A stretch of DNA of 64,000 nt from an uncultured Candidatus Saccharibacteria bacterium (GCA_964447415.1 CAYUSN010000001.1:121727-185726); one strand, 5' to 3'. Positions 12,279-48,650 are shown, numbered from the stretch's first letter. The notes: a model not told the origin generated them from the letters alone. A program made the numbers and translations.

Positions 12279-12297
12279 TGAATTTAAGAAAAACACT

Positions 12298-23480: not shown

Positions 23481-23517
23481 CATGCCTCAGTAATTGATAT
23501 ACAGTGTCCCGCGTAGT

Positions 23518-23920: not shown

Positions 23921-23982
23921 TATGCACACGGAAGAAAAAATCGTTGCCAGGTGATTTTGAGGAAGTGCTATACTTACGGGAT

Positions 23983-26574
23983 ATGAAGTCATCACTATTT
24001 TTTATGCGGTTGGGAGTTATTTCAACCTCCGTAGTATTTTCACTTTTTTGTGTTGGTGTTTCTCATGCACAGGCAGCAACACTGTATTTTAATGGTGTAG
24101 TGAATTCAAATTGGAATACGTTGGGTAACTGGTGGACAGATGTAGGGTTCTCTGCGCCAGCAGGGAGTCTTCCAGGCGTGGGTGATGATGTGATTATTTC
24201 TGCTGACGTACTTTCAAATAGCGGTCCTGCGGCATCTGTAAACAGCATGCTGGTGAGTGGCCCCGCTGTTATAGGAATACCGGTAACCGTTGCAGTAGAT
24301 GCATCGTTTCATGACTCAAGCTCGCTCCGTAACCTTGTTATTGGTGACGCATGTTTTGCAACAACTGCAACAAACGGGCCGCGGTTTTTCGCAGGCCTGG
24401 GCCAGAGCAACAGGTCTTGGAGTAACTTTGCGGCGGCACCAAACGGTGATGTATATGGTGTTACGACTACTAATAATGAAATTTACAAACAAACAGGTGG
24501 TACGGGAGACTTTGTTGATTTGGGTATATTTATCTCCGGTGCATTTAGTATCGGCGTTGCACCAAATGGTAATGTGTATGCGGGCTCATACGGTGGTGAT
24601 ATGTATATGCAGACAGGGGGTGTGGGTAGCTTTGACGCTCTCAATCAAACTTTCAGAAATTGGTTAGGTATCACGGTGGCTCCAAACGGGGATGTATACG
24701 CCACGGGCTTTAACGAGGACATCTACAAACAAACATCTGGCGTGGGTGATTTTGTAGCTCTCGGACAGACTGTTCGTTCTTGGCAAACAATGGCGGCTGC
24801 ACCAAATGGTAATATTTATGCAATTGCAAATGATAATAAAATATACAAACAAACCTCCGGCATGGGAGATTTTGTTGATATAGGCGCACCAGTCAAATCG
24901 TGGTCTGGTATCACTATTGCTGCAAATGGGGACGTATATGCAAGTGTGTTTAACGGTGATATTTACGTACAATCAGGTGGTACTGGTGACTTCAATGCTC
25001 TCGGAGAAACATCGAGGAATTGGAGAGGTATGACAGTTGTCCCGAACGGTAACATTTATACTGGTGTTGTGGGTGGAGATGTATACATGCAGGATAATAG
25101 TGGTACAGTCACGGGGGCTACTACTGTTTGTTCCGCAGCGCTTCCTGTGGTCACGACATCAGCAACAACGTTGGGGATAAGTGGATCCACCTCACTGCTT
25201 TTAGGATCGATTGATGATACTGGTGGGGAAAGTATAAGTACACGGGGTTTTGAATACGGCCTGACAGAAAGTTATGGAGCCGCAACGTCTGAATCAGGGG
25301 TTTTTAACTCTGGCTCCTATAGTTTTTTTGCGGAGAACTTAACATGTGGCAGCGCCTATCATTTTCGAGCATTTGCTACGAATGGGGTAGGAACTGCTTA
25401 CGGTGCGGATGAAACATTTACCACACCAGCCTGTTCATCGGACAGCACTCTTTATGGCATTGATGGTTCGGGTAGTAATTCTGATGACCCACAACTGTAT
25501 GTGCTTGACCCTCTTACGGGTCTGAAGATAGAAACAATTGGACCGGTTGGTTTCTATGTCACCGGAATGGCATTTGACCCTACAACGGGTATTTTGTATG
25601 GAAGTACGGGAGGAAGTGGAATTAATTCAAAAAGTTTGATTACCATAAATACAGAGACAGGAAACGGAACATATCTTGGTGCTATTAAGAATGCGGGAAA
25701 TACATCACTGAATATGCCAGATATCACCTTCCGTTCAGATGGTAGATTATACGGATGGTATGGAAATGATAGTAGTCTCTACACAATCGATTTGACTTCT
25801 TGTGATGGAGTTGATGTCTCCTGTCTCGCAACAAAAGTTGGAGATTCGGGCTTAAGTAGCAACGGTGGCAACGGGCTCGCATTTGATAGTAATGATACCT
25901 TATTTCAATTTGGGAATTATGACGATAGTTATTATCAGATAAATCCAGACACTGGGGAGTCCGTTGCCGAATTCTCATTTACAAATCCTACTGGGGATAG
26001 TCATCCTATAGCGGCAGCCTCTTTCAATCAAAGTGACACTCTCTATCTTTCTCGGTTGTATTACGGAAGCCCAGGAGATTTAGTGATAGTTAACACCGAT
26101 ACGTATGAAATATTTTCTACAGGTGAGAATAATGATGAGATGGCTTACATGGACGCAATTGCGTTTTATATTCCTCCCGACACCACCGCCCCTGTCATCA
26201 CTATTCTCGGCGACAATCCAACCACTATCACCGTTGGTGATACATACACCGACGCAGGAGCAACAGCAGAAGATGATACCGACGGTGATATTACTGGAGA
26301 CATTGTGACAACCAACAACGTCAACGCTGCAGTTGCCGGTACGTACACGGTTGTCTATGATGTATCTGACACGGCACTCAATACTGCATCTGCAGAACGA
26401 ACGGTTATTGTGAATGAAGAAGAATCGAGTGGTGGAGGAAGTAGCAGACGCCGTGACGTTGCCGACGAACCCGTTAATTCTTCACCTACAACTCAAACAC
26501 CACTCGAGCAGCTTCTACTGGAACTCATTGAAGCACTCAAACTGCTCATTGCTGAGTTGATGAAAACACGGTAA
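23983..26574 (+). CDS. Large secreted protein: ~45-aa beta-propeller-type repeats, an FN3-like domain, a second propeller-like region, a bacterial Ig-like (DUF5011-type) domain and the shared C-terminal motif.
   Basis: Signal peptide MKSSLFFMRLGVISTSVVFSLFCVGVSHAQA. Repeats of the form …APNG(D/N)VYA…DIYKQTSG.GDFV.LG…. C-terminal …SSGGGSSRRR…LLELIEALKLLIAELMKTR. Confidence 0.7.
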   Translation: MKSSLFFMRLGVISTSVVFSLFCVGVSHAQAATLYFNGVVNSNWNTLGNWWTDVGFSAPAGSLPGVGDDVIISADVLSNSGPAASVNSMLVSGPAVIGIPVTVAVDASFHDSSSLRNLVIGDACFATTATNGPRFFAGLGQSNRSWSNFAAAPNGDVYGVTTTNNEIYKQTGGTGDFVDLGIFISGAFSIGVAPNGNVYAGSYGGDMYMQTGGVGSFDALNQTFRNWLGITVAPNGDVYATGFNEDIYKQTSGVGDFVALGQTVRSWQTMAAAPNGNIYAIANDNKIYKQTSGMGDFVDIGAPVKSWSGITIAANGDVYASVFNGDIYVQSGGTGDFNALGETSRNWRGMTVVPNGNIYTGVVGGDVYMQDNSGTVTGATTVCSAALPVVTTSATTLGISGSTSLLLGSIDDTGGESISTRGFEYGLTESYGAATSESGVFNSGSYSFFAENLTCGSAYHFRAFATNGVGTAYGADETFTTPACSSDSTLYGIDGSGSNSDDPQLYVLDPLTGLKIETIGPVGFYVTGMAFDPTTGILYGSTGGSGINSKSLITINTETGNGTYLGAIKNAGNTSLNMPDITFRSDGRLYGWYGNDSSLYTIDLTSCDGVDVSCLATKVGDSGLSSNGGNGLAFDSNDTLFQFGNYDDSYYQINPDTGESVAEFSFTNPTGDSHPIAAASFNQSDTLYLSRLYYGSPGDLVIVNTDTYEIFSTGENNDEMAYMDAIAFYIPPDTTAPVITILGDNPTTITVGDTYTDAGATAEDDTDGDITGDIVTTNNVNAAVAGTYTVVYDVSDTALNTASAERTVIVNEEESSGGGSSRRRDVADEPVNSSPTTQTPLEQLLLELIEALKLLIAELMKTR

Positions 26575-27094: not shown

Positions 27095-27697
27095 ATGCAG
27101 AAATTTCTCATCGGTACAAAACAGGAAATGACGCAAATCTTCGACGAGAAGGGTGTCGTGCACCCGGGCACCGTCATTTCGCTTTTTCCCGCAGCCGTGA
27201 CACAAATGAAAGCAACCGACACCGACGGGTACACCGCGGTGCAAATCGGTTACGGCGCAAAGAAAGAATCAAAAGTGAACCGCGCGCAGAAAGCGAAAGG
27301 TGCATTTACGGCATTCAAAGAATTTCGCGTTGATGACCCGTCTGCGTTTGCAGTCGGTACGGCAATTGATCCGAATGTGTTTGCAGTCGGTGACACGGTC
27401 ACTGTTGCGGGCGTATCAAAAGCAAAAGGATTTCAGGGTGTGGTGAAGCGTCACGGGTTCCACGGCGGCCGCCGCACGCACGGCCAGAAGCACTCAGAGC
27501 GCGAGCCGGGTTCCATCGGCGCCGGCGGTGTGCAGCGCGTACCCAAAGGACGCCGCATGGCAGGACGCATGGGCGGCGAGCGCATCTCAGTTAAGAATCT
27601 CCGCGTGCTCCAGATTGATCCGTCAGCCAATGTGCTGGTGGTCTCAGGTGCAATCCCGGGACGCCGCGGTACGGTGGTTGAAATCATCGCGCAGTAA
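27095..27697 (+). CDS. rplC: 50S ribosomal protein L3.
   Basis: MQKFLIGTKQEMTQIF… start and L3 conservation. The longer ORF from 26948 is an upstream artefact. Confidence 0.9.
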   Translation: MQKFLIGTKQEMTQIFDEKGVVHPGTVISLFPAAVTQMKATDTDGYTAVQIGYGAKKESKVNRAQKAKGAFTAFKEFRVDDPSAFAVGTAIDPNVFAVGDTVTVAGVSKAKGFQGVVKRHGFHGGRRTHGQKHSEREPGSIGAGGVQRVPKGRRMAGRMGGERISVKNLRVLQIDPSANVLVVSGAIPGRRGTVVEIIAQ

Positions 27698-27705
27698 TTG
27701 TTCTA

Positions 27706-28472
27706 TGGAAAAGAAAATCGTAAAAAAGAAAATCGTGAAGAAGACAGCGGCAAAAACGCGCGCCGTTAAAGCGGAGAAAAAAGCAAAAGCATCCACAGGC
27801 GAGCTTTCAGCGCCGATGTTTACAGTTGCAGGAAAAGAAGCGGGGAAAGTAACGCTTCCCGCAAGTGTCTTCGGTGTCACATGGAACGCGGACTTGGTGC
27901 ACCAGGTTACCTTGGGCATGCAGGCAAACGCACGCGCAGGACTCGGACGCGCACACACGAAAGGACGCGGTGAAGTACGCGGTGGAGGACGCAAGCCGTG
28001 GCGACAGAAGGGAACCGGACGCGCACGACACGGTTCTTCACGCTCACCGATATGGCGCGGCGGAGGAGTGACGCACGGACCGCGCGCGGACAAAGAATAC
28101 GCGGTGCGGATTCCCCGAAAGATGCGCGCGAAGGCGCTCTTCTCGGTGCTCTCACGAAAATTCCGCGACGGTCAGCTTCTCTTTGTGGATGCGATGCCGT
28201 TTGCAACGCCAAAAACAGGCGATGCCAAGAAAGCACTCGACACGCTTGCAAAAGTCGCGGGCTTTGAAAAACTTTCACGAAAGAGCGGGAATGCGGTGCT
28301 GTTTGTGATGCCGAAAAACGACGAGGCGGTGAAGAAGAGCTTCCGCAACATCGGCACGACCGGCGTGGAGGAGGCGCGCAACTTAAACGCGGTAGACGCA
28401 CTCTCATTTACGTATCTCGTTATTGTCGACCCCGATACGTCGGTGAAAGGGTTTGAATCAAAAATGAACTAA
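27706..28472 (+). CDS. rplD: 50S ribosomal protein L4, with a Lys-rich N-terminal extension.
   Basis: L4 core (…KPWRQKGTGRARHGS…). Gene order matches the S10 operon. Confidence 0.9.
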
Positions 28473-36491: not shown

Positions 36492-36941
36492 ATGCAGCTC
36501 CACGAACTCAAAAGAAAAACACCGAATAAGAAATCGCGACGTGTCGGACGCGGCAGTAAGCGCGGTAAAACGTCGGGACGCGGTACAAAGGGTCAGAAAG
36601 CACGCGCAGGACACCGAATTCGTCCGGAGTTCCGCGACATGATCAAAAAGATTCCGAAACGGCGCGGCTACGGCAAACATCGCGCATCAGGCGTCATCGG
36701 CTCGCGTGTGAGTGCAATCGTCGTTGACCTCAAAACAATCGATAAGACGTTCGAGTCAGGAGACTCGGTAACACTTGCGGCACTCGCCGAAAAAAAAGTC
36801 ATTCGCATGCGCGGCGGCAAAATGCCGGCTGTAAAAATACTCGGTACAGGACCAGTTTCAAAGAAACTCACCGTAACCGGTGTTCCGATCTCAGCGTCCG
36901 CGAAGGCGGCAATCGAGAAGGCGGGTGGGTCAGTTGCATAA
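36492..36941 (+). CDS. rplO: 50S ribosomal protein L15.
   Basis: L15 Gly/Arg/Lys-rich N-terminus and core. Confidence 0.9.
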   Translation: MQLHELKRKTPNKKSRRVGRGSKRGKTSGRGTKGQKARAGHRIRPEFRDMIKKIPKRRGYGKHRASGVIGSRVSAIVVDLKTIDKTFESGDSVTLAALAEKKVIRMRGGKMPAVKILGTGPVSKKLTVTGVPISASAKAAIEKAGGSVA

Positions 36942-36945
36942 TTAT

Positions 36946-38217
36946 ATGTCCGAATTTGTTCATAAACTGAAAATTATCGTCGGTGACCGGCAGTTGCGTT
37001 CACGCATTCTCTTTGTGCTCGGCATTCTCGCGCTCTCGCGCGTGTTTGCGGCTATCCCGATTCCGGGCATTGATATCGTCGCGCTTGCGCAGTTCTTTTC
37101 AAACAATCAGTTCTTCGGACTGCTCAATCTGTTTTCAGGAGGCGGACTGTCGGGGCTTTCCATCGCCATGCTCGGTGTGGGTCCGTTCATTACGGCATCC
37201 ATCATCATGCAGCTTCTGACGATTCTGTCTCCACAACTCAAGGCGATGTACCACGAGGAAGGGCAGGCGGGACGCCGGCGCATTTCACAGTACTCGCGTC
37301 TGCTCACGGTGCCGCTTGCGGCGCTCTCGGCATTCGGTTTCATCCTGCTTTTGCAGCGTAACGGCGTTATCGCCGAGCTCAGCTCGCTTGCGCTTATCTC
37401 AAACATCGTGGTGATTGTCGCCGGTTCAGTGCTCATGATGTGGCTCGGAGAACTCATCACGGAATTCGGTATCGGCAACGGCATGTCACTGCTTATCTTC
37501 GCCGGAATCGTCGCGGGGTTGCCCGGGGCCATTCAACAGCTCTCGTTTTCATTCACACCGGAACAGATTCCCGCGTATGTCGGTTTCCTCATCGTAGCGC
37601 TTGTCATTATCTTCGGTGTCGTAATCATCACGGAGGCGGAGCGGCCGATTCCGATTACGTATGCAAAGCAGGTCCGCGGCAACAAAGTCTACGGCGGCGT
37701 GTCCACGTACCTTCCGCTGCGCGTCAACCAAGCCGGCGTGATGCCGATCATCTTCGCACTCTCCATCCTGCTGTTTCCGGGCATGATTGCGAACTTCCTT
37801 TCAGGTATTCAAAACGGATTTGTGCAGGCGGCAGTCTCCTTCATCAACGGGTTCCTCAATAATCTGCTTCTCTATGGCGCCGCGTACTTCATCCTGGTGT
37901 TTCTCTTCACGTACTTCTACACCGCCGTTACATTTGACCCCGATGCGATTTCAAAGAACCTGCAGAGAAGTGGCGCATTTATTCCGGGCGTTCGTCCGGG
38001 CGTTTCCACCGCAACACATATCGGCAACATTCTCACCCGCCTCACGCTTTTAGGAGCCCTGTTCCTCGGTCTTATCGCGGTCTTGCCGCTTATCATGCAG
38101 ACGGCGACCGGTATCACTTCAGTGGCGGTCGGCGGTACGGGACTTCTGATTGCTGTGTCCGTCATCATCGACTTGGTGAAGAAGATAGAAGCCCAAGTGT
38201 CGCTTCGAGAATACTAA
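36946..38217 (+). CDS. secY: Preprotein translocase subunit SecY.
   Basis: 10-TM SecY topology and motifs. Start MSEFVHKLK at 36946. The ORF track's 36880 start overlaps the rplO 3' end. Confidence 0.92.
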   Translation: MSEFVHKLKIIVGDRQLRSRILFVLGILALSRVFAAIPIPGIDIVALAQFFSNNQFFGLLNLFSGGGLSGLSIAMLGVGPFITASIIMQLLTILSPQLKAMYHEEGQAGRRRISQYSRLLTVPLAALSAFGFILLLQRNGVIAELSSLALISNIVVIVAGSVLMMWLGELITEFGIGNGMSLLIFAGIVAGLPGAIQQLSFSFTPEQIPAYVGFLIVALVIIFGVVIITEAERPIPITYAKQVRGNKVYGGVSTYLPLRVNQAGVMPIIFALSILLFPGMIANFLSGIQNGFVQAAVSFINGFLNNLLLYGAAYFILVFLFTYFYTAVTFDPDAISKNLQRSGAFIPGVRPGVSTATHIGNILTRLTLLGALFLGLIAVLPLIMQTATGITSVAVGGTGLLIAVSVIIDLVKKIEAQVSLREY

Positions 38218-38274: not shown

Positions 38275-38841
38275 ATGAAATACAACACCATCATCGTTTT
38301 AGGAAAGCCGGGGTCGGGGAAGGGCACACAGGCAAAACTGCTCTCTGAAAAGGCAGGTTTTCCGGTGTTCTCTGCGTCGGGTAACCTCAAATCTCTGGCA
38401 CAGTCACACCCCGATATCGGCAAAGAAATTCTTGATGATATGAATCACGGCGTTTTGGTGCCGCACTGGATTGTGTCGTACCTATGGATCGCCGAGCTGG
38501 TAAATCTCGGACACGACAAAGGTATTATTTTTGACGGCGCGGTGCGCAAGCTTGAAGAGGCAAAACTGTTTGATGAAGTGATGCGTTACATGCACCGCAC
38601 ATATGTGGTGGTGTATCTGACCATTTCTGATGAAGAGCTGTACGACCGGCTTTCCAAGCGCGCTGAAATCGAGAGCCGTGCTGACGACGACGGAGAGGTG
38701 ATTAAAAAACGTCTTGCGCAGTACGATGAAAACACGAAGGACTCACTCGCGTTTTTCAAAGAACAAGGAACGCTTAAAGAGGTAAACGGTGAGGGAAGTA
38801 TTGAAGAAATCCACGAGCGTATTCTTGCCGCGCTTGCATAA
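38275..38841 (+). CDS. adk: Adenylate kinase, short form without a zinc lid.
   Basis: P-loop GKPGSGKGTQ and the adenylate-kinase fold. Confidence 0.9.
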   Translation: MKYNTIIVLGKPGSGKGTQAKLLSEKAGFPVFSASGNLKSLAQSHPDIGKEILDDMNHGVLVPHWIVSYLWIAELVNLGHDKGIIFDGAVRKLEEAKLFDEVMRYMHRTYVVVYLTISDEELYDRLSKRAEIESRADDDGEVIKKRLAQYDENTKDSLAFFKEQGTLKEVNGEGSIEEIHERILAALA

Positions 38842-38843: not shown

Positions 38844-39608
38844 ATGCTGCTGATTAAAACCGAGGAAGACATACGGCTCATTCGTGAAGCGGGTAGGCGT
38901 CTTGCGCGCGTGATGCGCGACGTTGCCGTCGCGGCCGTGCCCGGTGTTTCCACACAGGAACTCAATGATCTCGCTGAACGTCTCATCCGCGAGGGAGGAG
39001 ACGCGCCGGCATTTTTAAACTTTAAACCCGCAGGTGCTTCACGTCCCTTTCCTGCAACGCTGTGTGTGTCCGTTAACGACGAAGCGGTGCACGGCATTCC
39101 ATCAAAAGAACGCTTTTTGAAAGAGGGAGATATCGTGAGTTTAGACGCGGGTTTGACGCACCATGGTCGTGTTGCCGACATGTGTGTGACGGTTCCCGTC
39201 GGAGAGGTTGATGAAAAAGCGAAACGGCTCATTGAAGTCACCAAAAAAGCGATGGAGCTAGGTATTGCCGCCTCGCACGGCGGTGCGTTTGTCGGCGATA
39301 TCGGACGCGCCATTGAACCGTATGTAAAAAAGGAGGGCTTTGAGGTGGTCGCTGACCTCGGTGGACACGGTGTGGGGTATGCGGTGCACGAAGAACCGCA
39401 CGTTTTTCATATTGTGCGGAAAGGAAAGGGAATGAAGCTGAGCCCTGGAATGGTCATTACCGTTGAACCGACGGTGTCGGAAGGGAGCGGAGAGGTGGAT
39501 TTGGCAGGGGATGAGTGGACATATAAAACCACAGATGGTTCCCGCTGTGCACAGTGGGAACACACCATACTTATTACCGAGGGTGTTCCTGAAATTTTGA
39601 CGGTATAA
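38844..39608 (+). CDS. map: Methionine aminopeptidase, type I.
   Basis: Pita-bread-fold metal ligands (D…D…H…E…E) and full-length MetAP-I similarity. Confidence 0.92.
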   Translation: MLLIKTEEDIRLIREAGRRLARVMRDVAVAAVPGVSTQELNDLAERLIREGGDAPAFLNFKPAGASRPFPATLCVSVNDEAVHGIPSKERFLKEGDIVSLDAGLTHHGRVADMCVTVPVGEVDEKAKRLIEVTKKAMELGIAASHGGAFVGDIGRAIEPYVKKEGFEVVADLGGHGVGYAVHEEPHVFHIVRKGKGMKLSPGMVITVEPTVSEGSGEVDLAGDEWTYKTTDGSRCAQWEHTILITEGVPEILTV

Positions 39609-39638: not shown

Positions 39639-42224
39639 ATGAAAATGGAAGGATTTCAGTCACCACAGGAGGAACAACCGAAAGATCTTGACCATGTGAC
39701 GGCAGGTGATTTGCGGGATGTGTATAAGTCTGTGTTAAAGAGGAAGGAAGGTGAGGCTGCCGAAGAAGAAAGGGCACAGAAAACCGAGAGTTCGTCTCCG
39801 GAGGTAAAAAAATCTTCCGGACGCAAGACATCAAAAGGCCGGTTGCCCGCGAAATCTGATGAGAATAAGAAACCTGAGACATTTGTTCGCCCTGAAGAGG
39901 CGCTGTCCCGGAAAGAACTTGAACAGCTCGAGCAGAAATTGCGGGAGATTCCTTCTGAAGCTGAGCTCACACAACGAATCAGCGACGCCGCGTCGTTTGA
40001 TGAGCTTTTTGCCGCATTTGAGGGTGTGGAGATTGTTGAAGGTACACACACATACACTTTAGAGCAGGTGAAAAAAGGTATTGAGAAGCTTCGTGCGGAC
40101 GTTGTGCGCACCGCACAGGAAAAAAACGGAACCGAGGAGCGGACGTATGAGGTGTTCCAGGCGCTGTTGCGCTGGGGTCTTCCGGAATTCACAAGACGGT
40201 TCGGTTTGCGTGGTAAAGTCGAAGAGTTGTTAATTGAGGAGTATCATCTCGGACCTGAAGGGGCAGAGGAACAGTCTTCACAACCAGAGACAGAAGCGCA
40301 GGAGCCCGAAAAAGATGCCGAAAAACTTCTCGAAGCCGTTCCTGAAAAAGAAAAACCGACATGGCTGCGAAAAATCGCCGGTGCAGGGTTTGGTATTCAA
40401 CAAGCGAAGAACTGGGCGGGCGAACAGGCGTTCGGATTTGCGTACAAGAAATTTTTTGAAGGCGCAGTAGACGCAAAAAAGCAGGGAAAAGAGCTGAAAG
40501 GGTTTCAAAAAGCGCGGTTTGAAGCGGGGCTTCTGGTAGGCTCATTGGCGAGACATTACTCCGAAGCAAAAGATGTTTCGGAAAAAAACAAAGAGGACTT
40601 CTACGCCGGAAAAAGCAAGAAGATGGAGTGGGCGAAACTCGCAGGGGAGGGTATCCGTGCGGTGCGTGCGGTGTTTGCGCCGATGGGAATGCTGCGTTCT
40701 CCGGTGTGGACGCTGATTGCGCTTTCAAGAATCTCCGAGACCGCAAAAGAACACCGTTTTGAGAAGAAAAAATACGACGAATCATCGGATGAGGTCGCGG
40801 AAGACGCCATTGCAATGTACGAAGAGGCGCAGAAAGAAGCACGGGCAGCCGGAAGGGATCTTCCGACGTCAGATGATATCTCCCGCGTGTACGCAAAAGG
40901 TGTGATTCGCGGAACGCTTGAGTCGGGGACGGGTGTGCTTGCCAAAACTGCGGCGGGTTTGGGCGTGAAGAAGCTTATTGAGCCCGTGTTTAAGGAAATG
41001 CAGGCGGTTGAAGAAGATGCAACGCTTTCCGCTTCAGAAAAACAGGCGCGGCTGACCGTGTTGGCGCGTAAAAATGAAAAACTCATCAAGGAAGTGGACA
41101 TGCTCGTTGACCGGGCGGGTAGCGTGGATGCGGTTGCCTACTATCTGCGTCAGACTGGCGTCTGGACGAAACGTGTTTCAGCCGCGGTGGCGATAGAAAC
41201 TATTCTTGAGGCGGGGTACCACATCTTTGACAGTCTTGCAGAGGGAGCGGATGCGTCGCATTCGGCGGGTGCCGAAGTCTCATCACTGAAACGCCCGCAC
41301 GTTGCATCTATGGCGTATACGCTCGGGCACATGAAAGACACGGAGGGATTAGATTTGTCGGGTGTTGAGGCGCCGGTCCCGCCGGTTACCATCGAGCACG
41401 GCGGAAACATCTGGAGTTCCGCAAAAGACATTGCGGAGAAGGCGGGACTTTCAAAGGAGCAGTTCGCAGCCGCGTGGGGAGAGTCCACTGTGAAGCTTCC
41501 TGACGGACGCGTTATTCCGATTGCGGAGCTTAATTTGGTGCATGAGGGCGATACGCTCTCCTACGTGCCGGGAGAAGGGGATGCCGCGGGACATTTTGAA
41601 TTCAACAACGAATCACATATTGCGTACGGCGATACGTTGAATCTTCCGGGCGCACAGGAGGGCGAGGTGATTTCAAAGATGGATTTTGAACCGCAAGAAT
41701 ACTCTGAAGTCGTTGATTCGGGATCAGAAAATGTTGAGAAATTGATGCAAGATTACCCCGAGCTTACCCGTGAACAGGCGGAAAGAATAGAGGATATTAT
41801 GTCATCCGAACACAGCACGCTACCTGAAGCGGAGGGAATTACCGGAGAGGTCGGGACGGACTCGCCGCAGGAAGTTTCGGAAAAAATCTCCGGAACACCG
41901 GTTGACCGTCTTGCCGAGATGGGTATTGAAAAATACTCTGCTGATGTGGTTGATAAGGAGTTGCGTTGGTATTTCGGACAAAAATATCAGACATCTGAGG
42001 CGTGGAATCAGATTCAGGGTATGAGCGCGCGAAAATTTGAAAGAATGTCGCCCGGTGCCGAAGATGCGGAAATAATTACAAAATTTCAGTCGTATATTGA
42101 AGATCTCGGGAAAAAAACAGGAATCAAGCCGGTCGGAGGGTTGTTCCGGCGCGATGAAACCGTGCTTGAATACTTCGCACGTGTTAGAAGGGCTTTGATC
42201 GAACAAAAAAGCTCGGGTAGGTAG
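39639..42224 (+). CDS. Large hypothetical protein, 861 aa, highly charged (Lys/Glu-rich), no recognised domain.
   Basis: Long ORF directly upstream of the coupling protein-like ATPase. No TM segment or signal peptide seen. Confidence 0.6.
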   Translation: MKMEGFQSPQEEQPKDLDHVTAGDLRDVYKSVLKRKEGEAAEEERAQKTESSSPEVKKSSGRKTSKGRLPAKSDENKKPETFVRPEEALSRKELEQLEQKLREIPSEAELTQRISDAASFDELFAAFEGVEIVEGTHTYTLEQVKKGIEKLRADVVRTAQEKNGTEERTYEVFQALLRWGLPEFTRRFGLRGKVEELLIEEYHLGPEGAEEQSSQPETEAQEPEKDAEKLLEAVPEKEKPTWLRKIAGAGFGIQQAKNWAGEQAFGFAYKKFFEGAVDAKKQGKELKGFQKARFEAGLLVGSLARHYSEAKDVSEKNKEDFYAGKSKKMEWAKLAGEGIRAVRAVFAPMGMLRSPVWTLIALSRISETAKEHRFEKKKYDESSDEVAEDAIAMYEEAQKEARAAGRDLPTSDDISRVYAKGVIRGTLESGTGVLAKTAAGLGVKKLIEPVFKEMQAVEEDATLSASEKQARLTVLARKNEKLIKEVDMLVDRAGSVDAVAYYLRQTGVWTKRVSAAVAIETILEAGYHIFDSLAEGADASHSAGAEVSSLKRPHVASMAYTLGHMKDTEGLDLSGVEAPVPPVTIEHGGNIWSSAKDIAEKAGLSKEQFAAAWGESTVKLPDGRVIPIAELNLVHEGDTLSYVPGEGDAAGHFEFNNESHIAYGDTLNLPGAQEGEVISKMDFEPQEYSEVVDSGSENVEKLMQDYPELTREQAERIEDIMSSEHSTLPEAEGITGEVGTDSPQEVSEKISGTPVDRLAEMGIEKYSADVVDKELRWYFGQKYQTSEAWNQIQGMSARKFERMSPGAEDAEIITKFQSYIEDLGKKTGIKPVGGLFRRDETVLEYFARVRRALIEQKSSGR

Positions 42225-42277
42225 GAATAGCACATATACTCCTACATTCTGTGTGTTTCAGTTGCTATACTATTCGT

Positions 42278-45037
42278 ATGGAACGTTTTTCCGTTACCCC
42301 TGAAACAAAATTTTCCTCAGCAGAGCAGGAGGCGGCATTTTTGCGGGAACGGCTTAAACAACTAGAGCAAAACGTTGATGCGGGTACGCACGAGCTCGTG
42401 CACACAGGTACTGAAGAGGAAATTACGCGTACCTACGCAAAAACCGCCCCCGATAAAGTGCTTGCCAAGGGCCATGAAATGCTCCAGCCGGAAGTTGATG
42501 CTGTGGTGCTTGATTTGGCGCCTGAGGAGCACGACACCATCATGGGTGAGCTTTTGACGTTGGTTCGTGAGAAAGGTGTCCGTAACGCGCTTTCTGTTGT
42601 TGAGAAACTTCACGATGCCCATGTTGAGGACGACTTTCATCGCTTTTTGGCCGAGTATCTGAAGGAAGGGTATGCAACGAAAGGTGTTAAAGAGGGCGAG
42701 CCTTTGTGGAAAGCGCTCCACATGACGCTTCTGGAGGTGACACTGCCGTTTGCCGCCTCCGACGCACAGGAACATCAAAAACCTCTGAAGGAACTGCTAT
42801 CGTCCATGGAGCAGTTTTATGCCGGCGCCTTGTCGGTTGCGGAGGAAAAAGGTTCCAAGAAAAACTATTTTGCCCTTGAACTTGCGGTTGAGTCGCATCA
42901 GGAGCATGTGGTGCTGTATCTCTCCGTTCCGGTGGAGAAAGTGCCGCTGTTTGAAAAGCAATTGCTCTCCATTTTTCCGCAGGCGCGCATCGAAGTCTCG
43001 AAAAACGACTACAACATCTTTGTTCCGGAAGGACAGACGGCGGGTTCCGTTGCCTCATATGCACAGCCGTCCGCGTATTCAATAAAAACACACGAATCGT
43101 TCGACTACGACCCGCTCAATATTCTGCTCTCGGCTTTCGGAAAACTCCTGCGCGTCGGTGAAGGAGCGGCGGTACAAGTGCTTGTTCGGGCCGCACAAAC
43201 CGACTATGCGGCGACATACCGGAAGGCGCTTGAAAAAATACTGAAAGGGACGCCTGTGAAAGAGGCGCTTAAGGAAAAATCGGTGGTGTCCTCAATCGGC
43301 AAGGAAATTAACGAGCTCTTTTTCATGACGAAAGAGAAAAAAGACAAGAAAAAAGAAAAAGAGCGGGAACACCCCGTGGACGATATCGCGGTTGAGCAGA
43401 TTAAACAGAAAATTTCGCACCCGATTGCCGAAGTGAACGTGCGCTTGCTTGCATCCGCAACCTCACAAACGCGCGCTGATGCAATTCTTTCGGATATTGA
43501 AGCAACCTTCAGCCAGTTTAATGAACCGCGCGGGAACGCGTTTGCATTTACTCGCGTCAAACCCGGCAACATCAAGGTTCTTATAAAGAACTTTGCGTTC
43601 CGCCTGTTTGCAGACGGCGACGTGATGCCGATGAATCTCCGCGAGATCGCATCTTTTATCCATGTTCCGTCAACGAGCGGCGATGCATCGCGCGAACTGA
43701 AGCGTTCGAAATCTACTGTGACGCCCGCACCGATAGACCTTCCGCAAGAGGGCGTACTTCTCGGTTACAACACATACGGTAACCAGCAGACGCCCGTGCG
43801 CATGCTTCCGGAAGACCGTCTGCGCCATCTCTACTGCGTCGGACAGACCGGTGTAGGAAAGACAACGCTTTTGAAAAATATGATTATCCAAGACATCAAA
43901 AACGGTGAGGGTGTGTGTATGATTGACCCGCACGGCACAGACCTCATTGATGTGCTTTCACAAATTCCTGCGGAGCGCTGGGATGATGTGATTTATTTTG
44001 ATCCTGCGTATACACCGCGCCCGATGGGACTCAACATGCTTGAGTACGATACACGCTATCCCGAGCAAAAAACATTCGTGGTTAACGAGGTGTTCTCCAT
44101 CTTCCAGAAGCTGTACGGCAGTGTGCCCGAGTCAATGGGACCGATGTTTGAACAGTATTTCCGTAACTCGGCCATGCTCGTGATTGAAGATCCGGAGACG
44201 GGTAACACGCTGTTTGATGTCTCTCGGGTGATGACCGATAAGGCATTTCGTGACCTGAAGCTTTCCCGCTGTAAAAACCCTGTGGTGGTGCAGTTTTGGC
44301 GTGAAATCGCCGAAAAAGCGGGCGGTGAAGCCTCGCTTGCCAATATCGTGCCCTACATCTCGAGTAAATTTGACGTGTTTTTGGCAAACGACATCATGCG
44401 TCCGATTATTACGCAAAAGAAATCGGTCTTTAATTTCCGCGAAATCATGGATGAGCGCAAGATTCTTTTGGTGAACCTTTCAAAGGGTCGTTTGGGCGAC
44501 ATCAACGCAAACCTCATCGGACTCATCATTGTCGGCAAGATTTTGATGGCGGCGCTCTCACGAGTTGATATGCTCGGCACAAAAGACATTCCGCCTTTCT
44601 ATCTGTATATCGACGAATTTCAAAATGTGACGACAGACTCTATTGCAACAATTCTCTCGGAGGCACGCAAATACAAACTGGGGCTCAATGTGTACCACCA
44701 GTACATCAAACAGCTTGATGAGAAAATCCGCGATGCGGTGTTCGGCAACGTCGGCACCATCTGCTCCTACCGTGTGGGTTCCGAAGATGCGGAGTTTTTG
44801 GAAAAACAATTTACACCGGTATTTACCGCAAACGATCTCATGAATGTCGACAACTTTAACGCGTTTCTCAAACCGCTCATCAGAAATAAAACAGAGCGCC
44901 CATTTTCAATCTACATACCCAACACAGAAAAAGGAAACCCGGAGGTGATTGAAACACTCAAACAGCTTTCGTACAACCGATTCGGACGTCCGCGCGAAGA
45001 AGTCGAAGCGGAAATCGGCTCGATGTACAAGGTGTAA
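42278..45037 (+). CDS. Type IV coupling protein-like (VirD4/TraG, FtsK/HerA superfamily) ATPase, fused to a ~480-aa N-terminal domain of unknown function.
   Basis: Walker A YCVGQTGVGKTTLL, then MIDPHGTDL, then Walker B-like FYLYIDEFQNV. Start MERFSV at 42278. No N-terminal TM helices. Confidence 0.65.
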   Translation: MERFSVTPETKFSSAEQEAAFLRERLKQLEQNVDAGTHELVHTGTEEEITRTYAKTAPDKVLAKGHEMLQPEVDAVVLDLAPEEHDTIMGELLTLVREKGVRNALSVVEKLHDAHVEDDFHRFLAEYLKEGYATKGVKEGEPLWKALHMTLLEVTLPFAASDAQEHQKPLKELLSSMEQFYAGALSVAEEKGSKKNYFALELAVESHQEHVVLYLSVPVEKVPLFEKQLLSIFPQARIEVSKNDYNIFVPEGQTAGSVASYAQPSAYSIKTHESFDYDPLNILLSAFGKLLRVGEGAAVQVLVRAAQTDYAATYRKALEKILKGTPVKEALKEKSVVSSIGKEINELFFMTKEKKDKKKEKEREHPVDDIAVEQIKQKISHPIAEVNVRLLASATSQTRADAILSDIEATFSQFNEPRGNAFAFTRVKPGNIKVLIKNFAFRLFADGDVMPMNLREIASFIHVPSTSGDASRELKRSKSTVTPAPIDLPQEGVLLGYNTYGNQQTPVRMLPEDRLRHLYCVGQTGVGKTTLLKNMIIQDIKNGEGVCMIDPHGTDLIDVLSQIPAERWDDVIYFDPAYTPRPMGLNMLEYDTRYPEQKTFVVNEVFSIFQKLYGSVPESMGPMFEQYFRNSAMLVIEDPETGNTLFDVSRVMTDKAFRDLKLSRCKNPVVVQFWREIAEKAGGEASLANIVPYISSKFDVFLANDIMRPIITQKKSVFNFREIMDERKILLVNLSKGRLGDINANLIGLIIVGKILMAALSRVDMLGTKDIPPFYLYIDEFQNVTTDSIATILSEARKYKLGLNVYHQYIKQLDEKIRDAVFGNVGTICSYRVGSEDAEFLEKQFTPVFTANDLMNVDNFNAFLKPLIRNKTERPFSIYIPNTEKGNPEVIETLKQLSYNRFGRPREEVEAEIGSMYKV

Positions 45038-45101: not shown

Positions 45102-45686
45102 ATGAAAAATCCAAAAGAGGAGAAGACATTCGTGATGATTAAACCCGACGGCGTGCGGAAAGGACTTGTCGGCGAGATTATCAAACGCTTTGAACAGCGT
45201 GACATGAAGATTGTGGCGCTTGAAATGTACCAACCGACCCTTAAACAGGTTGATAGTCATTACCCGAAGGATAAAGCATGGGTTACCCGTCTTGGGGAAA
45301 AGACTTCGGCGACATACGAGAAGTACGGATACTCTCTAAAAAGTCATTTTGGTACTGATGACAAGTTTAAAATAGGAAAAGAAGTCCGTAGTTGGTTATT
45401 GAAATACATGACATCCGGGCCGATTGTGAAAATGGTCGTGCAAGGTGTTCATGCGGTTGATATGATTCGGAAAATTGTCGGTCCGACTCTGCCATATTCT
45501 GCTGAAATGGGCACGATTCGCGGAGATTTCTCCGCGGACTCACCGGCGCTGGCAAATGCCGAGAAACGCGCCGTTATGAACCTTGTTCATGCGTCAGAAA
45601 CACCCGCAGAAGCGGCGCACGAGATCAAACATTGGTTTGGGAAGGAGCCGATTTATGCCTATAAACGCTTCGGCATTGATGAATGA
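45102..45686 (+). CDS. ndk: Nucleoside diphosphate kinase, long variant with insertions.
   Basis: ERTFVMIKPDGV signature. Active-site His context NLVHAS. Confidence 0.8.
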   Translation: MKNPKEEKTFVMIKPDGVRKGLVGEIIKRFEQRDMKIVALEMYQPTLKQVDSHYPKDKAWVTRLGEKTSATYEKYGYSLKSHFGTDDKFKIGKEVRSWLLKYMTSGPIVKMVVQGVHAVDMIRKIVGPTLPYSAEMGTIRGDFSADSPALANAEKRAVMNLVHASETPAEAAHEIKHWFGKEPIYAYKRFGIDE

Positions 45687-45688
45687 AC

Positions 45689-45774
45689 CCAGCACTTAAT
45701 TTACCCTGTGTTTTTTGGTTTGGTGAGGATTGGTTAGTAAGGAACGAGGGAAAAATGATACGATGTGCATGAAT
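45689..45774. repeat. Hairpin element, copy D. A 13-bp inverted repeat CCAGCACTTAATT…AATTAAGTGCTGG encloses ~60 nt.
   Basis: Begins 2 nt after the ndk stop. Same tips as copies A to C. Confidence 0.6.
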
Positions 45775-45844
45775 TAAGTGCTGGATGAAGCTGACATCAA
45801 TCAAAATCAGAATCTTTGTCAAATCTTCATAAAACGAAATCCAA

Positions 45845-45872
45845 AAACACGCCAAAAACTGGCGTGTTTTGT
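45845..45872 (+). terminator. Intrinsic terminator (AAAACACGCC-aaaaact-GGCGTGTTTT).
   Basis: Hairpin flanked by an A tract and a T tract, so it could act in either direction. Confidence 0.5.
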
Positions 45873-46029
45873 GTCGGGCGTATTCACTTTTTGTGCGCGT
45901 GTGGTGAACGGTGTTATCCCCCTTGCACGTTTTTGTCAAAAGGGAGTATCGTACTAGTAGGGGTTATTTTGGATATTATCTAGATCAAATAAAAACTTAT
46001 AGGGACTCCGAATTGTTTCAAACCGCGCA

Positions 46030-46136
46030 CCTTGGTGCTCGTACTGAGGAGACCCACCTAGCATACGCTAGGTAACACATCCGAGATGACCCCACAGATG
46101 AGCTCCGACCGCAAGGTCGGGGCTCATCTGTTTTTC
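46030..46136 (+). ncRNA. Candidate small structured RNA or leader: nested GC hairpins CAGATGAGC[TCCGACC-gcaa-GGTCGG]GGCTCATCTG followed by TTTTT.
   Basis: No ORF here. Strong coaxial hairpins with a U tract, ~45 nt upstream of the 46183 gene. No known family recognised. Confidence 0.25.
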
Positions 46137-46182
46137 GTGTGATATACTAAGGGTATTACACGCAGACTAGTCTTGATATTTT

Positions 46183-46611
46183 GTGATAGAAAAGCGAAAA
46201 AACATCCTCCTACTCGCGCTTTTGGTGATTGCATTTGCTGTGTTAACGCTTGATCGGATTGCGCAGGACAACTATCTGTACTGGACGTATTGGTGGTACG
46301 ACATCATGATGCACTTTCTCGGCGGGTTTCTTGTCGCCGGCATCGCGCTGTGGTTTCTTGCGCGCTTTTCACACGAGTCAGTGCGCGGCGCACGCCGTGC
46401 GCTGTATGTTGCAGTCAGTACCGCTATTATCGTCGGTATCGGATGGGAATTTTTTGAATATTTTTCCGGAGCACTTCTGCAGCAGGAGGGAAGCGTTGTC
46501 GGTGACACTGCGCTTGATTTGGTGATGGACACGGTCGGTGCGCTCGTGATGTGGGGAATTCTTGCAAAAATTTTTTTCGTACAGATTATTGACGACATGC
46601 GTCCGCTATGA
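46183..46611 (+). CDS. Small polytopic membrane protein (VanZ-like topology), hypothetical.
   Basis: Four predicted TM helices. Overlaps the next gene by 4 nt. Confidence 0.5.
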   Translation: MIEKRKNILLLALLVIAFAVLTLDRIAQDNYLYWTYWWYDIMMHFLGGFLVAGIALWFLARFSHESVRGARRALYVAVSTAIIVGIGWEFFEYFSGALLQQEGSVVGDTALDLVMDTVGALVMWGILAKIFFVQIIDDMRPL

Positions 46612-47987
46612 GCACCGAGCAATCTTCAAAAGACGTACGAATTGTGTTTCATGGCGGCGTCGGTACAGTGACGGGTGCAAATTTTCTGCTTGCATCGTCG
46701 CAGATACAAATTCTCGTTGACTGCGGTCTGCTGCAGGGTCAGCGCATGTGCAGTGCCGAAAACAGCGACCCGTTTCCGTACAATCCCGCAGAGATGCAGG
46801 CGCTTCTTGTGACGCACTCACACATTGATCATATCGGGCGCATTCCGAAATTGGTGAAGGATGGTTTTAGGGGGACGATTTATTCCACGCTCGAAACAAA
46901 AAAACTTGCCGAAGTGATGCTGCCGGACGCAGCGCAACTCTTGATGCAGGAGTCGCTCACCTGCGGAACACCGCCGCCATATACGGCTGACGATGTCGCG
47001 CCTATTTTTGAGAAGTGGGAAACGATGCCGTACTACGCGTCATTTCCGCTCGGTGACTTTACCGTAAAATTCCAAAACGCGGGCCATATTCTCGGTTCCG
47101 CGATGGTTGAGATCGTTCATCCGAAGGTGGGAAAGATTCTCTTTACCGGCGATCTCGGCAATTCACCCTCACTGCTTCTCAAGGATACCGATGCGGTTGA
47201 AGAGGTGAACTACCTTGTTGTGGAATCAGTCTACGGCGACCGTGTGCATGAGGTTGTTGAGAACCGTCTCGGGCAGCTCGAAGACATCGTTGAACGGACA
47301 ATTTTACACGGAGGCACACTGCTGATTCCGACATTCTCCGTCGAGCGTACTCAAAACATTCTATACGAGATTAATCTGCTTGTTGAAAAAGACCGTATAC
47401 CGCATATTCCCGTCTTTCTTGACTCACCGCTTGCAACAAAGGTGACGGAGATTTACCGCAACGCAAAAACCGAATACAACGAATCGGTACAGCGCACGAT
47501 GGCGAAGGGGGATGACATTTTTGCGTTTGAAGGACTGCGTGTCGTTGAGTCGCCGGAGGAATCGCAGGAGATTCACAACATGTCGGGACCGAAAATCATC
47601 ATCGCGGGTTCGGGAATGTCCACCGGCGGACGTGTGTTGAGCCACGAGAAGCACTATCTCTCCGATCCGTCCTGCACGCTGCTTATCGTCGGCTATCAGG
47701 CACCAGGAAGTTTGGGTCGCCAGCTTGTAGACGGGGCAAAAGACGTACAGATTGAGAAAGAAGAGGTGGCCGTGCGCGCGAAAGTGGTTTCGGTGTCGGG
47801 ATACTCGGGGCATCGCGACGTCAACGGCCTGCTCGAGTTCGTCAACAGCACCAACACGTCGCTAAAACGCGCGTTTGTAGTGATGGGCGAGCCGAAAAGT
47901 TCCCAGTTTTTTGCACAACGGCTGCGTGATTACTATGGCGTTGACGCGTATGTGCCTACCGCAGGAGAAACTGTTGAACTTCCGTAG
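46608..47987 (+). CDS. Metallo-beta-lactamase fold ribonuclease with a beta-CASP domain (CPSF/RNase J-like).
   Basis: HSHIDHIG (HxHxDH) motif and downstream beta-CASP motifs (D…H…H). Confidence 0.8.
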   Translation: MSTEQSSKDVRIVFHGGVGTVTGANFLLASSQIQILVDCGLLQGQRMCSAENSDPFPYNPAEMQALLVTHSHIDHIGRIPKLVKDGFRGTIYSTLETKKLAEVMLPDAAQLLMQESLTCGTPPPYTADDVAPIFEKWETMPYYASFPLGDFTVKFQNAGHILGSAMVEIVHPKVGKILFTGDLGNSPSLLLKDTDAVEEVNYLVVESVYGDRVHEVVENRLGQLEDIVERTILHGGTLLIPTFSVERTQNILYEINLLVEKDRIPHIPVFLDSPLATKVTEIYRNAKTEYNESVQRTMAKGDDIFAFEGLRVVESPEESQEIHNMSGPKIIIAGSGMSTGGRVLSHEKHYLSDPSCTLLIVGYQAPGSLGRQLVDGAKDVQIEKEEVAVRAKVVSVSGYSGHRDVNGLLEFVNSTNTSLKRAFVVMGEPKSSQFFAQRLRDYYGVDAYVPTAGETVELP

Positions 47988-48023: not shown

Positions 48024-48650
48024 ATGACCTACCGAAAAGAGGTGAATCAAGACATCAAGTTGTGTGTGTCAGGAGCGGCGGAAACGTCGAACTGCGGACC
48101 GCACGCATACGAACTTGCCAAGGAACTCGGCCGTGAGATTGCGCGCCATGATGCGGTGGTCGTCACCGGCGCCACGACGGGATTTCCGCTGTGGGCGGCA
48201 ATCGGGGCAAAAGAAGCGGAAGGAACTTCCATCGGCTTTTCTCCGGCGGCATCAGAGCGCGAACACATTGAGGCATTCCGGCTCCCCGTTGATTACATGG
48301 ACCTTATCATTTACACGGGATTCGGTTATTCGGGACGCGACCTTATTTTGACCCGTTCATCGGATGCCGTGCTGTTCGGGTGCGGACGCATCGGAACAAT
48401 TCACGAATTTACCATCGCGTTTGAAGACAACAAACCCATCGGTATTTTGGAAGGGGACTGGATGACGGATGAAACAATCAAAACAATTCTCGAGCGCAGC
48501 AACCGCGCATACGACAAGGTGATATTTGATACGAATCCGAAAAGTCTTGTTGAGAAAATTATCGAGCTGGTGAAACGCGACAAGGCCGCCGACAAGATGA
48601 CGTACAGTTACCGTCCCGTGGAAGAAGACGACGGCGCACTACATGGATAA
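48024..48650 (+). CDS. LOG / TIGR00725-family Rossmann-fold protein.
   Basis: GCGRIGTIHEF resembles the LOG PGGxGTxxE motif. Size and layout fit. Confidence 0.55.
   Translation: MTYRKEVNQDIKLCVSGAAETSNCGPHAYELAKELGREIARHDAVVVTGATTGFPLWAAIGAKEAEGTSIGFSPAASEREHIEAFRLPVDYMDLIIYTGFGYSGRDLILTRSSDAVLFGCGRIGTIHEFTIAFEDNKPIGILEGDWMTDETIKTILERSNRAYDKVIFDTNPKSLVEKIIELVKRDKAADKMTYSYRPVEEDDGALHG

Follow-up and report, generated by a model that had tools for sequence, protein, structure and literature searches.

What is the gene pair that follows map in this ribosomal-protein region, and do its two members belong together? The question was raised by a 64,000-nucleotide stretch of DNA from an uncultured Candidatus Saccharibacteria bacterium (GCA_964447415.1, CAYUSN010000001.1:121727-185726), here called the window. 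A preliminary description had reported an 861-aa orphan protein (gene 1) and a 919-aa ATPase (gene 2) resembling the type IV coupling proteins (T4CPs) of the VirD4/TraG family. The two were proposed to form a module standing in place of the alpha-operon genes, either a remnant of a conjugative or DNA-uptake system or a defence or DNA-translocation module. The answer reached here is held with high confidence as regards identity, architecture and conservation: gene 2 encodes a conserved DUF8128 ATPase, and the pair is neither a two-gene module nor mobile nor defensive. Related loci are designated by L numbers. The two genes were placed as follows.

39639-42224, + strand: gene 1, 861 aa, ATG start, from open reading frame (ORF) and translation
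42278-45037, + strand: gene 2 (DUF8128 ATPase), 919 aa from ATG, soluble, the conserved element of the locus

Both ORFs, the first domain-less and the second a P-loop ATPase, were found after secY-adk-map as described (ORF calls and Pfam scan). The longest ORF for gene 2 spanned 42251-45037 (928 aa, GTG start); the ATG at 42278 was favoured by an orthologue alignment in which M1 and E2 are nearly invariant. Gene 1 was separated by 30 bp from map and by 53 bp from the ATPase gene. The GC content of both genes resembled that of the remaining window. A promoter and terminator scan from map to ndk gave nothing beyond shuffled expectation, and the sole strong hairpin lay past ndk, at 46094-46131. 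This outcome is compatible with co-transcription and proves nothing.

Distribution and conservation of the ATPase

The window ATPase was identical to a protein (P0001) encoded on Campbellbacteria-like contigs. At least 120 full-length relatives were found at 52-83% identity, under names including Campbellbacteria, Parcubacteria, Paceibacterota, Wolfebacteria and similar. Pfam DUF8128 (PF26449) was recorded for P0001 and for every relative listed; this assignment is the source's precomputed annotation, and the model was not among the matches of our own Pfam scan. When one genome per species was scanned, a full-length relative was present in at least 584 Patescibacteria genomes. Residues 1-481 alone, used as query, returned 831 clusters at the 50% identity level. 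A shorter form of approximately 800 aa (the split form, described below) had 1355 relatives at E <= 1e-10 and was encoded on at least 594 metagenome contigs.

Over syntenic loci, mean identity was 53% for the ATPase, 52.5% for map, 56.6% for S5, 50.9% for ndk and 33.8% for adk. ATPase identity tracked SecY identity (Spearman rho 0.53, p 0.002). From these comparisons the ATPase gene is judged to be a vertically inherited chromosomal gene across Paceibacteria-type Patescibacteria, conserved on a par with the core genes beside it.

Additional copies were seen in a few loci. ATPase paralogues of 955 and 961 aa lay one or two genes downstream in L125 (3276-6140) and L135 (10676-13558); they had the same architecture as the window protein, with 31% identity across 801 aa. 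In L090 a second T4CP-like gene (1-784), with a zf_Tbcl_2 domain, lay 8 kb upstream of the ATPase gene. The copies in all three loci are consistent with the approximately two T4CP homologues per genome given by Quinonero-Coronel et al. 2025 (PMC12102498).

Position of the ATPase gene

The conserved anchors on either side of gene 1 and the ATPase gene, all assigned by Pfam, were placed as follows in the window.

36880-38217, + strand: secY, part of the conserved upstream anchor
38275-38841, + strand: adk, part of the conserved upstream anchor
38844-39608, + strand: map, part of the conserved upstream anchor
45102-45686, + strand: ndk, part of the conserved downstream anchor
46183-46611, + strand: DUF2238 membrane protein, conserved downstream anchor
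46608-47987, + strand: beta-CASP RNase, conserved downstream anchor
48024-48650, + strand: SLOG/LDcluster4 protein, conserved downstream anchor

The order S5-L15-secY-adk-(pyrH-like)-map-(variable spacer of 0-6 kb)-ATPase-ndk-DUF2238-betaCASP-SLOG was kept in approximately 40 of 80 species loci. Past SLOG, on the opposite strand, an apparent infC-rpmI-rplT followed. Greedy ORF calls in the 80 loci placed map immediately upstream of the ATPase gene in 18; in other loci the spacer between them held up to approximately 6 kb of unrelated ORFs. In the complete Campbellbacteria genome CP064977 (L004), map was followed by a 257-bp spacer and then the ATPase gene, with no gene 1. The ancestral place of the ATPase gene in a large clade is therefore read, from gene order, as after secY-adk-map and before ndk, the map-ATPase spacer being a variable slot.

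Where the ATPase gene did not follow map, recurrent neighbours, identified by eye from cluster representatives, had a housekeeping appearance: mraZ-rsmH-ftsL-ftsI-murF, MreB, RseP, ProS, RmuC, GatB/YqeY, RecR, DnaB, Tgt and FKBP. Neighbours of the split form, by Pfam, comprised PMT_2 glycosyltransferases, a POTRA/FtsQ-like protein, a GtrA-like protein, dnaX and SerRS. VirB4, VirB6, VirB8, relaxase and integrase were not recognised in approximately 165 ATPase contexts or in the window, and neither VirB4 nor relaxase was found among the window's large ORFs. Of the partners that the preliminary description had suggested looking for nearby, relaxase and VirB4 were thus lacking in the window and in the approximately 165 loci, and pilin-like ORFs turned up occasionally elsewhere.

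The canonical alpha-operon genes had been described as missing after map. Searches by tblastn with Escherichia coli queries for IF1, L36, S13, S11, S4 and L17, suited to a screen only, found none in the 64-kb window, and the same six queries found none within 10 kb of the ATPase gene in 80 related loci. The absence was thereby upheld; the proposed local replacement by a two-gene module was not, since the break is common to the whole lineage. By this screen, the break in gene order after map is a lineage-wide property and not a replacement at this locus alone. Conservation of position across the lineage, which the preliminary description had named as an argument for a lineage-specific housekeeping role, was found for the ATPase; it argues for such a role and not for the remnant of a module.

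These results were weighed against the proposal that the pair had landed in the ribosomal-protein region as a decayed conjugative or integrative element, or else as a system of anti-phage defence (HerA-type or MADS-like). A PADLOC match to mad8 (E 1e-11) with weak HerA matches, a DUF87/HerA match at threshold (23.6 bits against a cut-off of 23.2, over 39 residues at the P-loop) and distant homologues in Bacillus phages would fit it. The mad8 match was partial, covering positions 28-244 of 314 in the profile and only the generic P-loop region. PADLOC, run on the two proteins, returned nothing on gene 1 and no complete system. Against a landed element stand the lineage-wide, syntenic occurrence and core-like conservation of the ATPase gene, the unremarkable GC content of both genes, and scanned neighbours among which integrase, relaxase, VirB4 and further defence components were all lacking. 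Flanking genes were housekeeping by Pfam. Both the conjugative or DNA-uptake remnant and the defence module were given up on these grounds, and a mobile or defensive origin is regarded as very improbable. A phage origin was also considered and set aside: the Bacillus phage homologues are real and remote (21-25% identity), there were two distant IMG/VR matches, and the locus would be left unexplained.

Motor half of the ATPase

The C-terminal half of gene 2 had been described as carrying FtsK/HerA-superfamily motifs in coupling-protein arrangement, namely GQTGVGKTT, IDPHGTD and IDEFQN. All three were present at the mapped positions, IDEFQN being residues 778-783 inside FYLYIDEFQN. Features of this half were as follows.

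43745-45034, + strand: P-loop motor domain, residues 490-919; RecA-like, VirD4/VirB4 clade, with a TrwB fold match
43841-43867, + strand: Walker A, GQTGVGKTT, residues 522-530; G522, Q523, T524, G525, G527 and K528 invariant in the alignment
43922-43942, + strand: IDPHGTD, residues 549-555, located as quoted
44063-44383, + strand: all-helical insertion, residues 596-702, between Walker A and B; from model secondary structure, at modest confidence
44597-44626, + strand: Walker B, FYLYIDEFQN, residues 774-783; D779, E780, F781, Q782 and N783 invariant
44657-44716, + strand: SEARKYKL ... VYHQYIKQL; E795, A796, R797, K798, Y799, H807 and Q808 invariant

The conserved Arg/Lys and His-Gln motifs past Walker B may represent arginine-finger and sensor-type motifs. 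The insertion may correspond to the coupling-protein all-alpha domain, whose place it would take in the model, and PF10412 (TrwB_AAD_bind) matches in relatives.

Sequence profiles matched the motor half to SXT TraD (2.6e-14), TOL TraD (1.7e-11), CD1115 VirD4-like (5.7e-8) and TraG-D_C. None of the curated T4CP models scored over its cut-off: TIGR03743 gave 52.6 against 366 bits, TIGR03754 43.4 against 647, NF045973 32.1 against 250 and PF12696 20.7 against 22. PF02534, PF10412 and PF12696 were precomputed on relatives, which NCBI names 'TraM recognition domain-containing' or 'T4SS conjugative DNA transfer family'. A full-length AlphaFold2 model built from 20 sequences was moderate (pLDDT 68). 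Foldseek placed TrwB first for the C-terminal half (target-normalised TM-score 0.52-0.55, 17% identity), followed by DotL, HerA and the VirB4 C-terminal domain; the full-length model matched TrwK/VirB4 over approximately 920 columns, with best E-values of approximately 5e-10.

The earlier assignment of this half to the HerA/FtsK superfamily as a coupling-protein-like ATPase was borne out: the best-scoring families were TraD, VirD4 and TraG-D_C, and the fold was closest to TrwB. The motor is closest to the type IV coupling proteins (TrwB, TraD, VirD4) by both sequence profile and fold. Of HHpred and Foldseek, suggested earlier as checks, Foldseek was run; it returned TrwK/VirB4 for the N-terminal domain and TrwB for the motor, with no FtsK among the top 50. 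The reported lack of a VirD4-type transmembrane anchor also stood. By Kyte-Doolittle hydropathy there was no transmembrane segment in the ATPase, the top 19-residue mean (1.97, residues 742-760) falling on a helix within the ATPase fold.

Front domain and adaptor

The N-terminal region of approximately 480 residues, described as unknown, was divided as follows.

42278-42697, + strand: adaptor segment, residues 1-140; helical in the model, a separate small upstream gene in most relatives
42704-43678, + strand: alpha/beta domain (DUF8128 core), residues 143-467; predicted VirB4 N-terminal-domain-like fold (AlphaFold2 and Foldseek)
43274-43369, + strand: disordered Lys/Glu loop, residues 333-364, within the alpha/beta domain

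Residues 1-481 were modelled alone with AlphaFold2 from 94 sequences (pLDDT 79.5, pTM 0.72). In Foldseek searches of the PDB, this model matched 13 TrwK/VirB4 chains at E 5e-6 to 5e-4 over approximately 410-430 columns. All other PDB matches had E >= 0.009, and none was to TrwB, HerA or FtsK; the match is therefore most probably to the VirB4-specific N-terminal domain. The model thus indicates that the front domain of the ATPase has the VirB4/TrwK N-terminal-domain fold, an assignment made by one method. Of the preliminary account of this region, the missing anchor held; the 'unknown' resolves to a fused small adaptor and a predicted VirB4-type domain.

Relatives of approximately 800 aa aligned to the window ATPase only from residue ~143 onward. 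In four annotated contexts of this split form, a gene of 137-163 aa lay directly upstream, with anything from a 4-bp overlap to a 36-bp gap. Enough upstream DNA was present in 65 split-form loci, and in 57 of them the ATPase gene was immediately preceded on its own strand by a small ORF; many of these ORFs abut it or overlap it by 4 bp. When residues 1-150 were made into a profile, upstream small ORFs were matched at up to 45 bits, and 31 of 60 were recovered after iteration. The same profile picked up each of the six ATPases measuring 896 aa or more, and just five other ORFs in 84 loci. Gene order and profile matches together indicate that the conserved two-gene module is a small helical protein plus the ATPase, fused in this window.

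A small partner, VirB3, often comes just before VirB4 or is fused with it. The split or fused adaptor is formally reminiscent of this VirB3-VirB4 arrangement. No membrane helix was found in the adaptor by Kyte-Doolittle hydropathy.

A second family of small partners (~160-210 aa, C-terminal motif WLK.IPG.NKFFLEQEAKIKTD) went with 13 ATPases, mostly of 835-864 aa. It is unrelated to the type-A adaptor, which it replaces, and lay directly upstream of the ATPase gene in L091, L094, L102, L107, L111, L115, L121, L131, L136, L137, L139 and L148.

Comparison with known ATPase families

The ATPase shares with T4CPs (VirD4/TrwB/TraD/TraG; PF02534, PF10412, PF12696) a P-loop motor with Walker A and B; the helical insertion of its model may be the counterpart of their all-alpha domain. 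It differs from them in having no N-terminal membrane anchor and approximately 470 extra N-terminal residues, which comprise the predicted VirB4-type fold and the adaptor. It is also unlinked to a relaxase or type IV secretion system (T4SS) locus in the window and approximately 165 loci, being chromosomal, syntenic and lineage-wide.

Like VirB4, TrwK and TraC, the protein is soluble, measures ~800-900 aa and combines an N-terminal alpha/beta domain with a C-terminal RecA-like domain; its full-length model is co-linear with TrwK. In contrast to that family, it gave no significant sequence match to VirB4 (VirB4_plasma, NF045975, E 0.003, 15.3 bits against a cut-off of 590) and no match to a VirB4-named Pfam family. 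Its adaptor lacks the membrane helix that VirB3 has, and its gene was never beside VirB3, VirB6 or VirB8 in the contexts examined. Patescibacteria moreover carry a separate canonical VirB4, often near dnaA, according to PMC12102498.

The T4CP homologues of that paper, which are VirD4-type HMM matches, very probably are the same gene set as, or one overlapping with, the ATPase described here. The available parts of PMC12102498 give no description of the DUF8128/VirB4-like N-terminal domain, the position after map or the split or fused adaptor. The architecture of the ATPase appears to be new, as do its fusion with the adaptor and its constant place within the ribosomal superoperon; the wide occurrence of the homologues was already published. 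A literature search returned no paper on 'DUF8128', and in Wang et al. 2023 the names VirD4, T4CP and VirB4 do not occur in the main text.

Homologues from Firmicute phages, grouped in phrog_5156 (Bacillus phage G gp156, phage JL, 0105phi7-2 gp033), share the two-domain architecture from residue ~173. The ATPase matched the phrog_5156 profile at E 2.4e-76 and phage G gp156 by Foldseek at E 2e-32 over 850 columns, and one phage homologue had been independently annotated to TrwK 7O43 by HHpred. Unlike the window protein, these homologues lack the 140-aa adaptor segment and lie in phage replication or partition modules or in modules annotated without function; they are also divergent, at the identity given above. 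In 0105phi7-2 (L173) and phage G (L174) the homologue genes adjoin genes for a ParA-like partition ATPase and a RepB-primase. Three small ORFs (111-117 aa) precede the homologue in 0105phi7-2, and in phage G it comes after gp155, annotated VirB-like.

With FtsK/SpoIIIE and HerA the ATPase shares membership of the ASCE P-loop superfamily, and HerA structures were matched at E ~1e-5. It differs from FtsK/SpoIIIE in lacking the FtsK_SpoIIIE, gamma and membrane domains (Pfam, NCBIfam and hydropathy). It differs from HerA in that no HerA-type N-terminal barrel was detected and no NurA, Sir2, DUF4297 or other effector lay nearby.

Possible role of the ATPase

It is probable, by analogy with VirB4, VirD4 and TrwB, that the protein is a ring-forming, ATP-driven motor. 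It would form a hexamer and, by hydrolysing ATP, would power translocation or assembly on the cytoplasmic side of a membrane complex. VirB4 contacts VirB3/VirB8 through its N-terminal domain. With no membrane anchor, the ATPase might dock through its VirB4-like N-terminal domain and the small adaptor. The likeliest platform would be the T4SS, chromosomal and devoid of a relaxase, that is encoded at another genomic site in most Patescibacteria, and the ATPase would there fill the substrate-recruiting or energising role held by the membrane-anchored VirD4 in other systems. As a whole this explanation is considered moderately likely. That the motor works with a T4SS rather than independently is by itself a tentative proposal, drawn by analogy.

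Published survey data are counted in favour of the explanation as a whole. According to Quinonero-Coronel et al. 2025 (PMC12102498), VirB4 occurs in 2,417 of 3,035 Patescibacteria genomes (80%), often near dnaA, and 5,713 VirD4-type T4CP homologues occur in 2,918 of the 3,035 (96%), 148 of them near virB4. Relaxases are almost absent, and most Patescibacteria T4SS clusters lack one. The three Campbellbacteria genomes shown in its supplement are marked VirB4-positive; CP064977 was not found there.

Several findings weigh against a T4SS-linked motor. Every match to a curated T4CP or VirB4 model fell far under its cut-off, and confidence in the C-terminal half of the full-length model was modest. 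No partner gene ties the ATPase to a T4SS: it did not adjoin virB4, VirB6 or VirB8 in the approximately 165 contexts, and pilin-like ORFs were occasional neighbours only. In Southlakia epibionticum a 't4cp homologue', by that label, was non-essential for epibiotic growth, and other T4SS genes were essential (PMC12102498). This non-essentiality, together with the wider occurrence of T4CP (96%) than of VirB4 (80%), argues for a T4SS-independent role.

Such a role would be that of a housekeeping nucleic-acid translocase, a soluble FtsK/HerA-like ring acting in segregation or dimer resolution, DNA repair or transformation uptake, with the small adaptor and VirB4-like domain targeting the ATPase to the divisome or an uptake channel. 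In addition to the S. epibionticum result, it would be consistent with T4CP homologues being more universal than VirB4 and nearly never linked to virB4; exaptation of these homologues was raised, and not excluded, by the authors of PMC12102498. Independent lineages place the gene by mraZ-rsmH-ftsL-ftsI-murF, POTRA/FtsQ-like, MreB, RmuC, RecR, DnaB and dnaX, the ATPase gene is embedded in a core operon, and the phage relatives in replication and partition modules are annotated 'DNA helicase or translocase'. Adjacency carries little information, however, in genomes of approximately 0.8 Mb in which nearly all neighbours are housekeeping genes. Neither an FtsK_SpoIIIE nor an FtsK gamma domain was found, FtsK was missing from the top 50 structural matches, and there was no NurA-type or other nuclease partner. 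The VirB4-type N-terminal domain is, moreover, so far known solely from T4SS ATPases. A T4SS-independent translocase is the main rival and is rated as rather unlikely.

The ATPase gene bears on more than this locus. Patescibacteria account for a large part of bacterial diversity and are epibionts with tiny genomes, so each conserved gene is likely to matter. The ATPase gene is conserved like genes of the ribosomal operon, yet it is labelled as a DUF or, misleadingly, as 'conjugative DNA transfer'. Core inheritance, the combination of VirB4-like and T4CP-like parts and the adaptor together offer a testable picture of a soluble docking motor. A VirB4-type N-terminal domain joined to a T4CP-type motor would also bear on the kinship of the two T4SS ATPase families. 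For annotation, a T4CP-like match in a Patescibacteria genome is no evidence of a mobile element.

Gene 1, a clade-specific mosaic orphan

The protein of gene 1 is acidic and Glu/Lys-rich (E 13.4%, K 8.5%). No match was found in Pfam, PADLOC, PHROGs or PDB sequences, and NCBIfam gave one insignificant match; there was no signal peptide or transmembrane segment (top 19-residue Kyte-Doolittle mean 1.36). Its description as a Lys/Glu-rich orphan without a recognisable domain thus agreed with both composition and family searches. A LysM-like stretch suggested by a weak YneA match was dropped when Pfam, scanned segment by segment with E up to 5, gave nothing. Two regions were distinguished.

39639-40340, + strand: hypervariable N-terminal region, residues ~1-234; charged, indel-rich, swapped wholesale between strains
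40341-42221, + strand: conserved core, residues ~235-861; many invariant alignment columns

Six relatives of gene 1 were found in 5.8 billion proteins, all in close Campbellbacteria. In the contexts examined (L001, L002, L171 and L172) the order was always map-gene1-ATPase-ndk. A gene 1 profile found no relative in 160 other loci. As a conserved partner of the ATPase, gene 1 was ruled out by this profile result beyond close Campbellbacteria and by its absence from CP064977, and the proposed module of gene 1 and ATPase falls with it.

In L002 the ATPase was 100% identical and the DNA 98.7% identical from position 40199 on; the earlier region did not align, gene 1 was 1088 aa against 861 aa here with its N-terminal part replaced, and a recombination breakpoint relative to L002 lay near 40199. 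Against L171, the block 40308-41689 was 81% nucleotide-identical, and every flanking gene was 63-72% identical. L172 was nearer by SecY and ATPase, yet its gene 1 protein was just 46% identical. These mosaic identities imply recombination of gene 1 between lineages, on a backbone that is passed on vertically, and they suggest exchange of its core. Gene 1 is accordingly best described, from the alignments, as a lineage-specific recombining orphan in the variable map-ATPase slot and not as a conserved partner.

A pairing that is functional without sequence conservation was also weighed. In this form, a large charged orphan beside the ATPase (gene 1 here, proteins of like appearance but no kinship elsewhere) would be a fast-evolving cargo, effector or adaptor, recognised by the ATPase and handed to a secretion machine. 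Large charged proteins (300-1650 aa, 28-35% K+E+D+R) with no signal peptide lay within two genes of the ATPase in approximately 20 of 80 fused-form loci, and the eight of them that were scanned had no Pfam domain. Their frequency was 15/149 at +/-1 versus 37/1304 at three or more genes away (odds ratio 3.8, p 1e-4). Against a fairer background of unclustered ORFs of at least 300 aa, the odds ratio fell to 2-2.7 (p 0.04-0.07), and there was no enrichment in the split-form set; a comparable charge is seen in about one third of all the large unclustered ORFs of these genomes. Enrichment of charged orphans beside the ATPase is, on these counts, not established.

In one split-form sub-lineage a block of genes on the same strand runs large charged protein, DUF5663 protein, adaptor and ATPase, which would suit such a pairing. 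In this block (L096-L098, L106 and L112) the large charged proteins measure 597-1040 aa and are weakly interrelated, and the DUF5663 protein measures ~102 aa. The mosaic of gene 1, with its exchanged core and replaced N-terminus, is typical under conflict or host-interaction pressure, and the short gaps on its two sides would also fit. The charged neighbours nevertheless belong to several unrelated families, and in many loci map abuts the ATPase gene with nothing between.

A further large insertion lies in the S10 operon of the window. There, at 23917-26574 on the + strand, an ORF of 885 aa stands between rpsJ (23494-23886) and rplD (27528-28472); its product has a bacterial surface Ig-like domain. 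The ORF is a second large non-ribosomal insertion within the ribosomal-protein superoperon, so insertions of this kind are tolerated at operon junctions here independently of the ATPase. Its GC content (0.448) is markedly below that of its surroundings and its GC skew (0.175) above. Overall, a functional pairing of charged orphan and ATPase is held to be improbable.

The same low standing is given to a bolder reading, in which DUF8128 would be a third, unrecognised branch of T4SS ATPases, uniting a docking domain of VirB4 type, a motor of coupling-protein type and a detachable adaptor, and indispensable in Paceibacteria, and the variable, recombining charged orphans beside the gene would be lineage-specific cargoes delivered via an essential T4SS to the host. 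Were it true, the slot beside the ATPase gene would be a ready map of effector candidates for an uncultivated radiation. For annotation, a large orphan neighbour should not be assumed to be a component of a system.

Other features of the window and related loci

The spacer between ndk and DUF2238 (45687-46182) comprises 496 bp of non-coding DNA. It holds the hairpin noted above, with a 17-bp stem and a T-run, at 46094-46131, and had no Rfam match. Its block 45907-46093 was 76.6% identical to L171, above the adjoining coding DNA. In the window as a whole (1-64000), neither tRNA genes nor Rfam families at gathering threshold were found, though most of the ribosomal-protein region is spanned.

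A small GIY-YIG/T5orf172 endonuclease ORF (12016-12270, + strand) abuts rplJ (12271-12804); it may represent an insertion into the L10 region of homing-endonuclease-like kind. Several large surface-protein-like ORFs (6339-11796, 13473-15476 and 17420-19522, + strand) occupy the interval from nusA/rplJ to the translation-factor and S10 region. They carry PKD, InlB B-repeat and a weak propeller motif, and one member is domain-less. Cys-rich proteins of ~580 aa with many CxxC pairs occur in 1-4 tandem copies between adk/pyrH-like and map in L044, L050, L057, L064, L073 and L080, as insertions into the same ribosomal superoperon of Nomurabacteria-like genomes.

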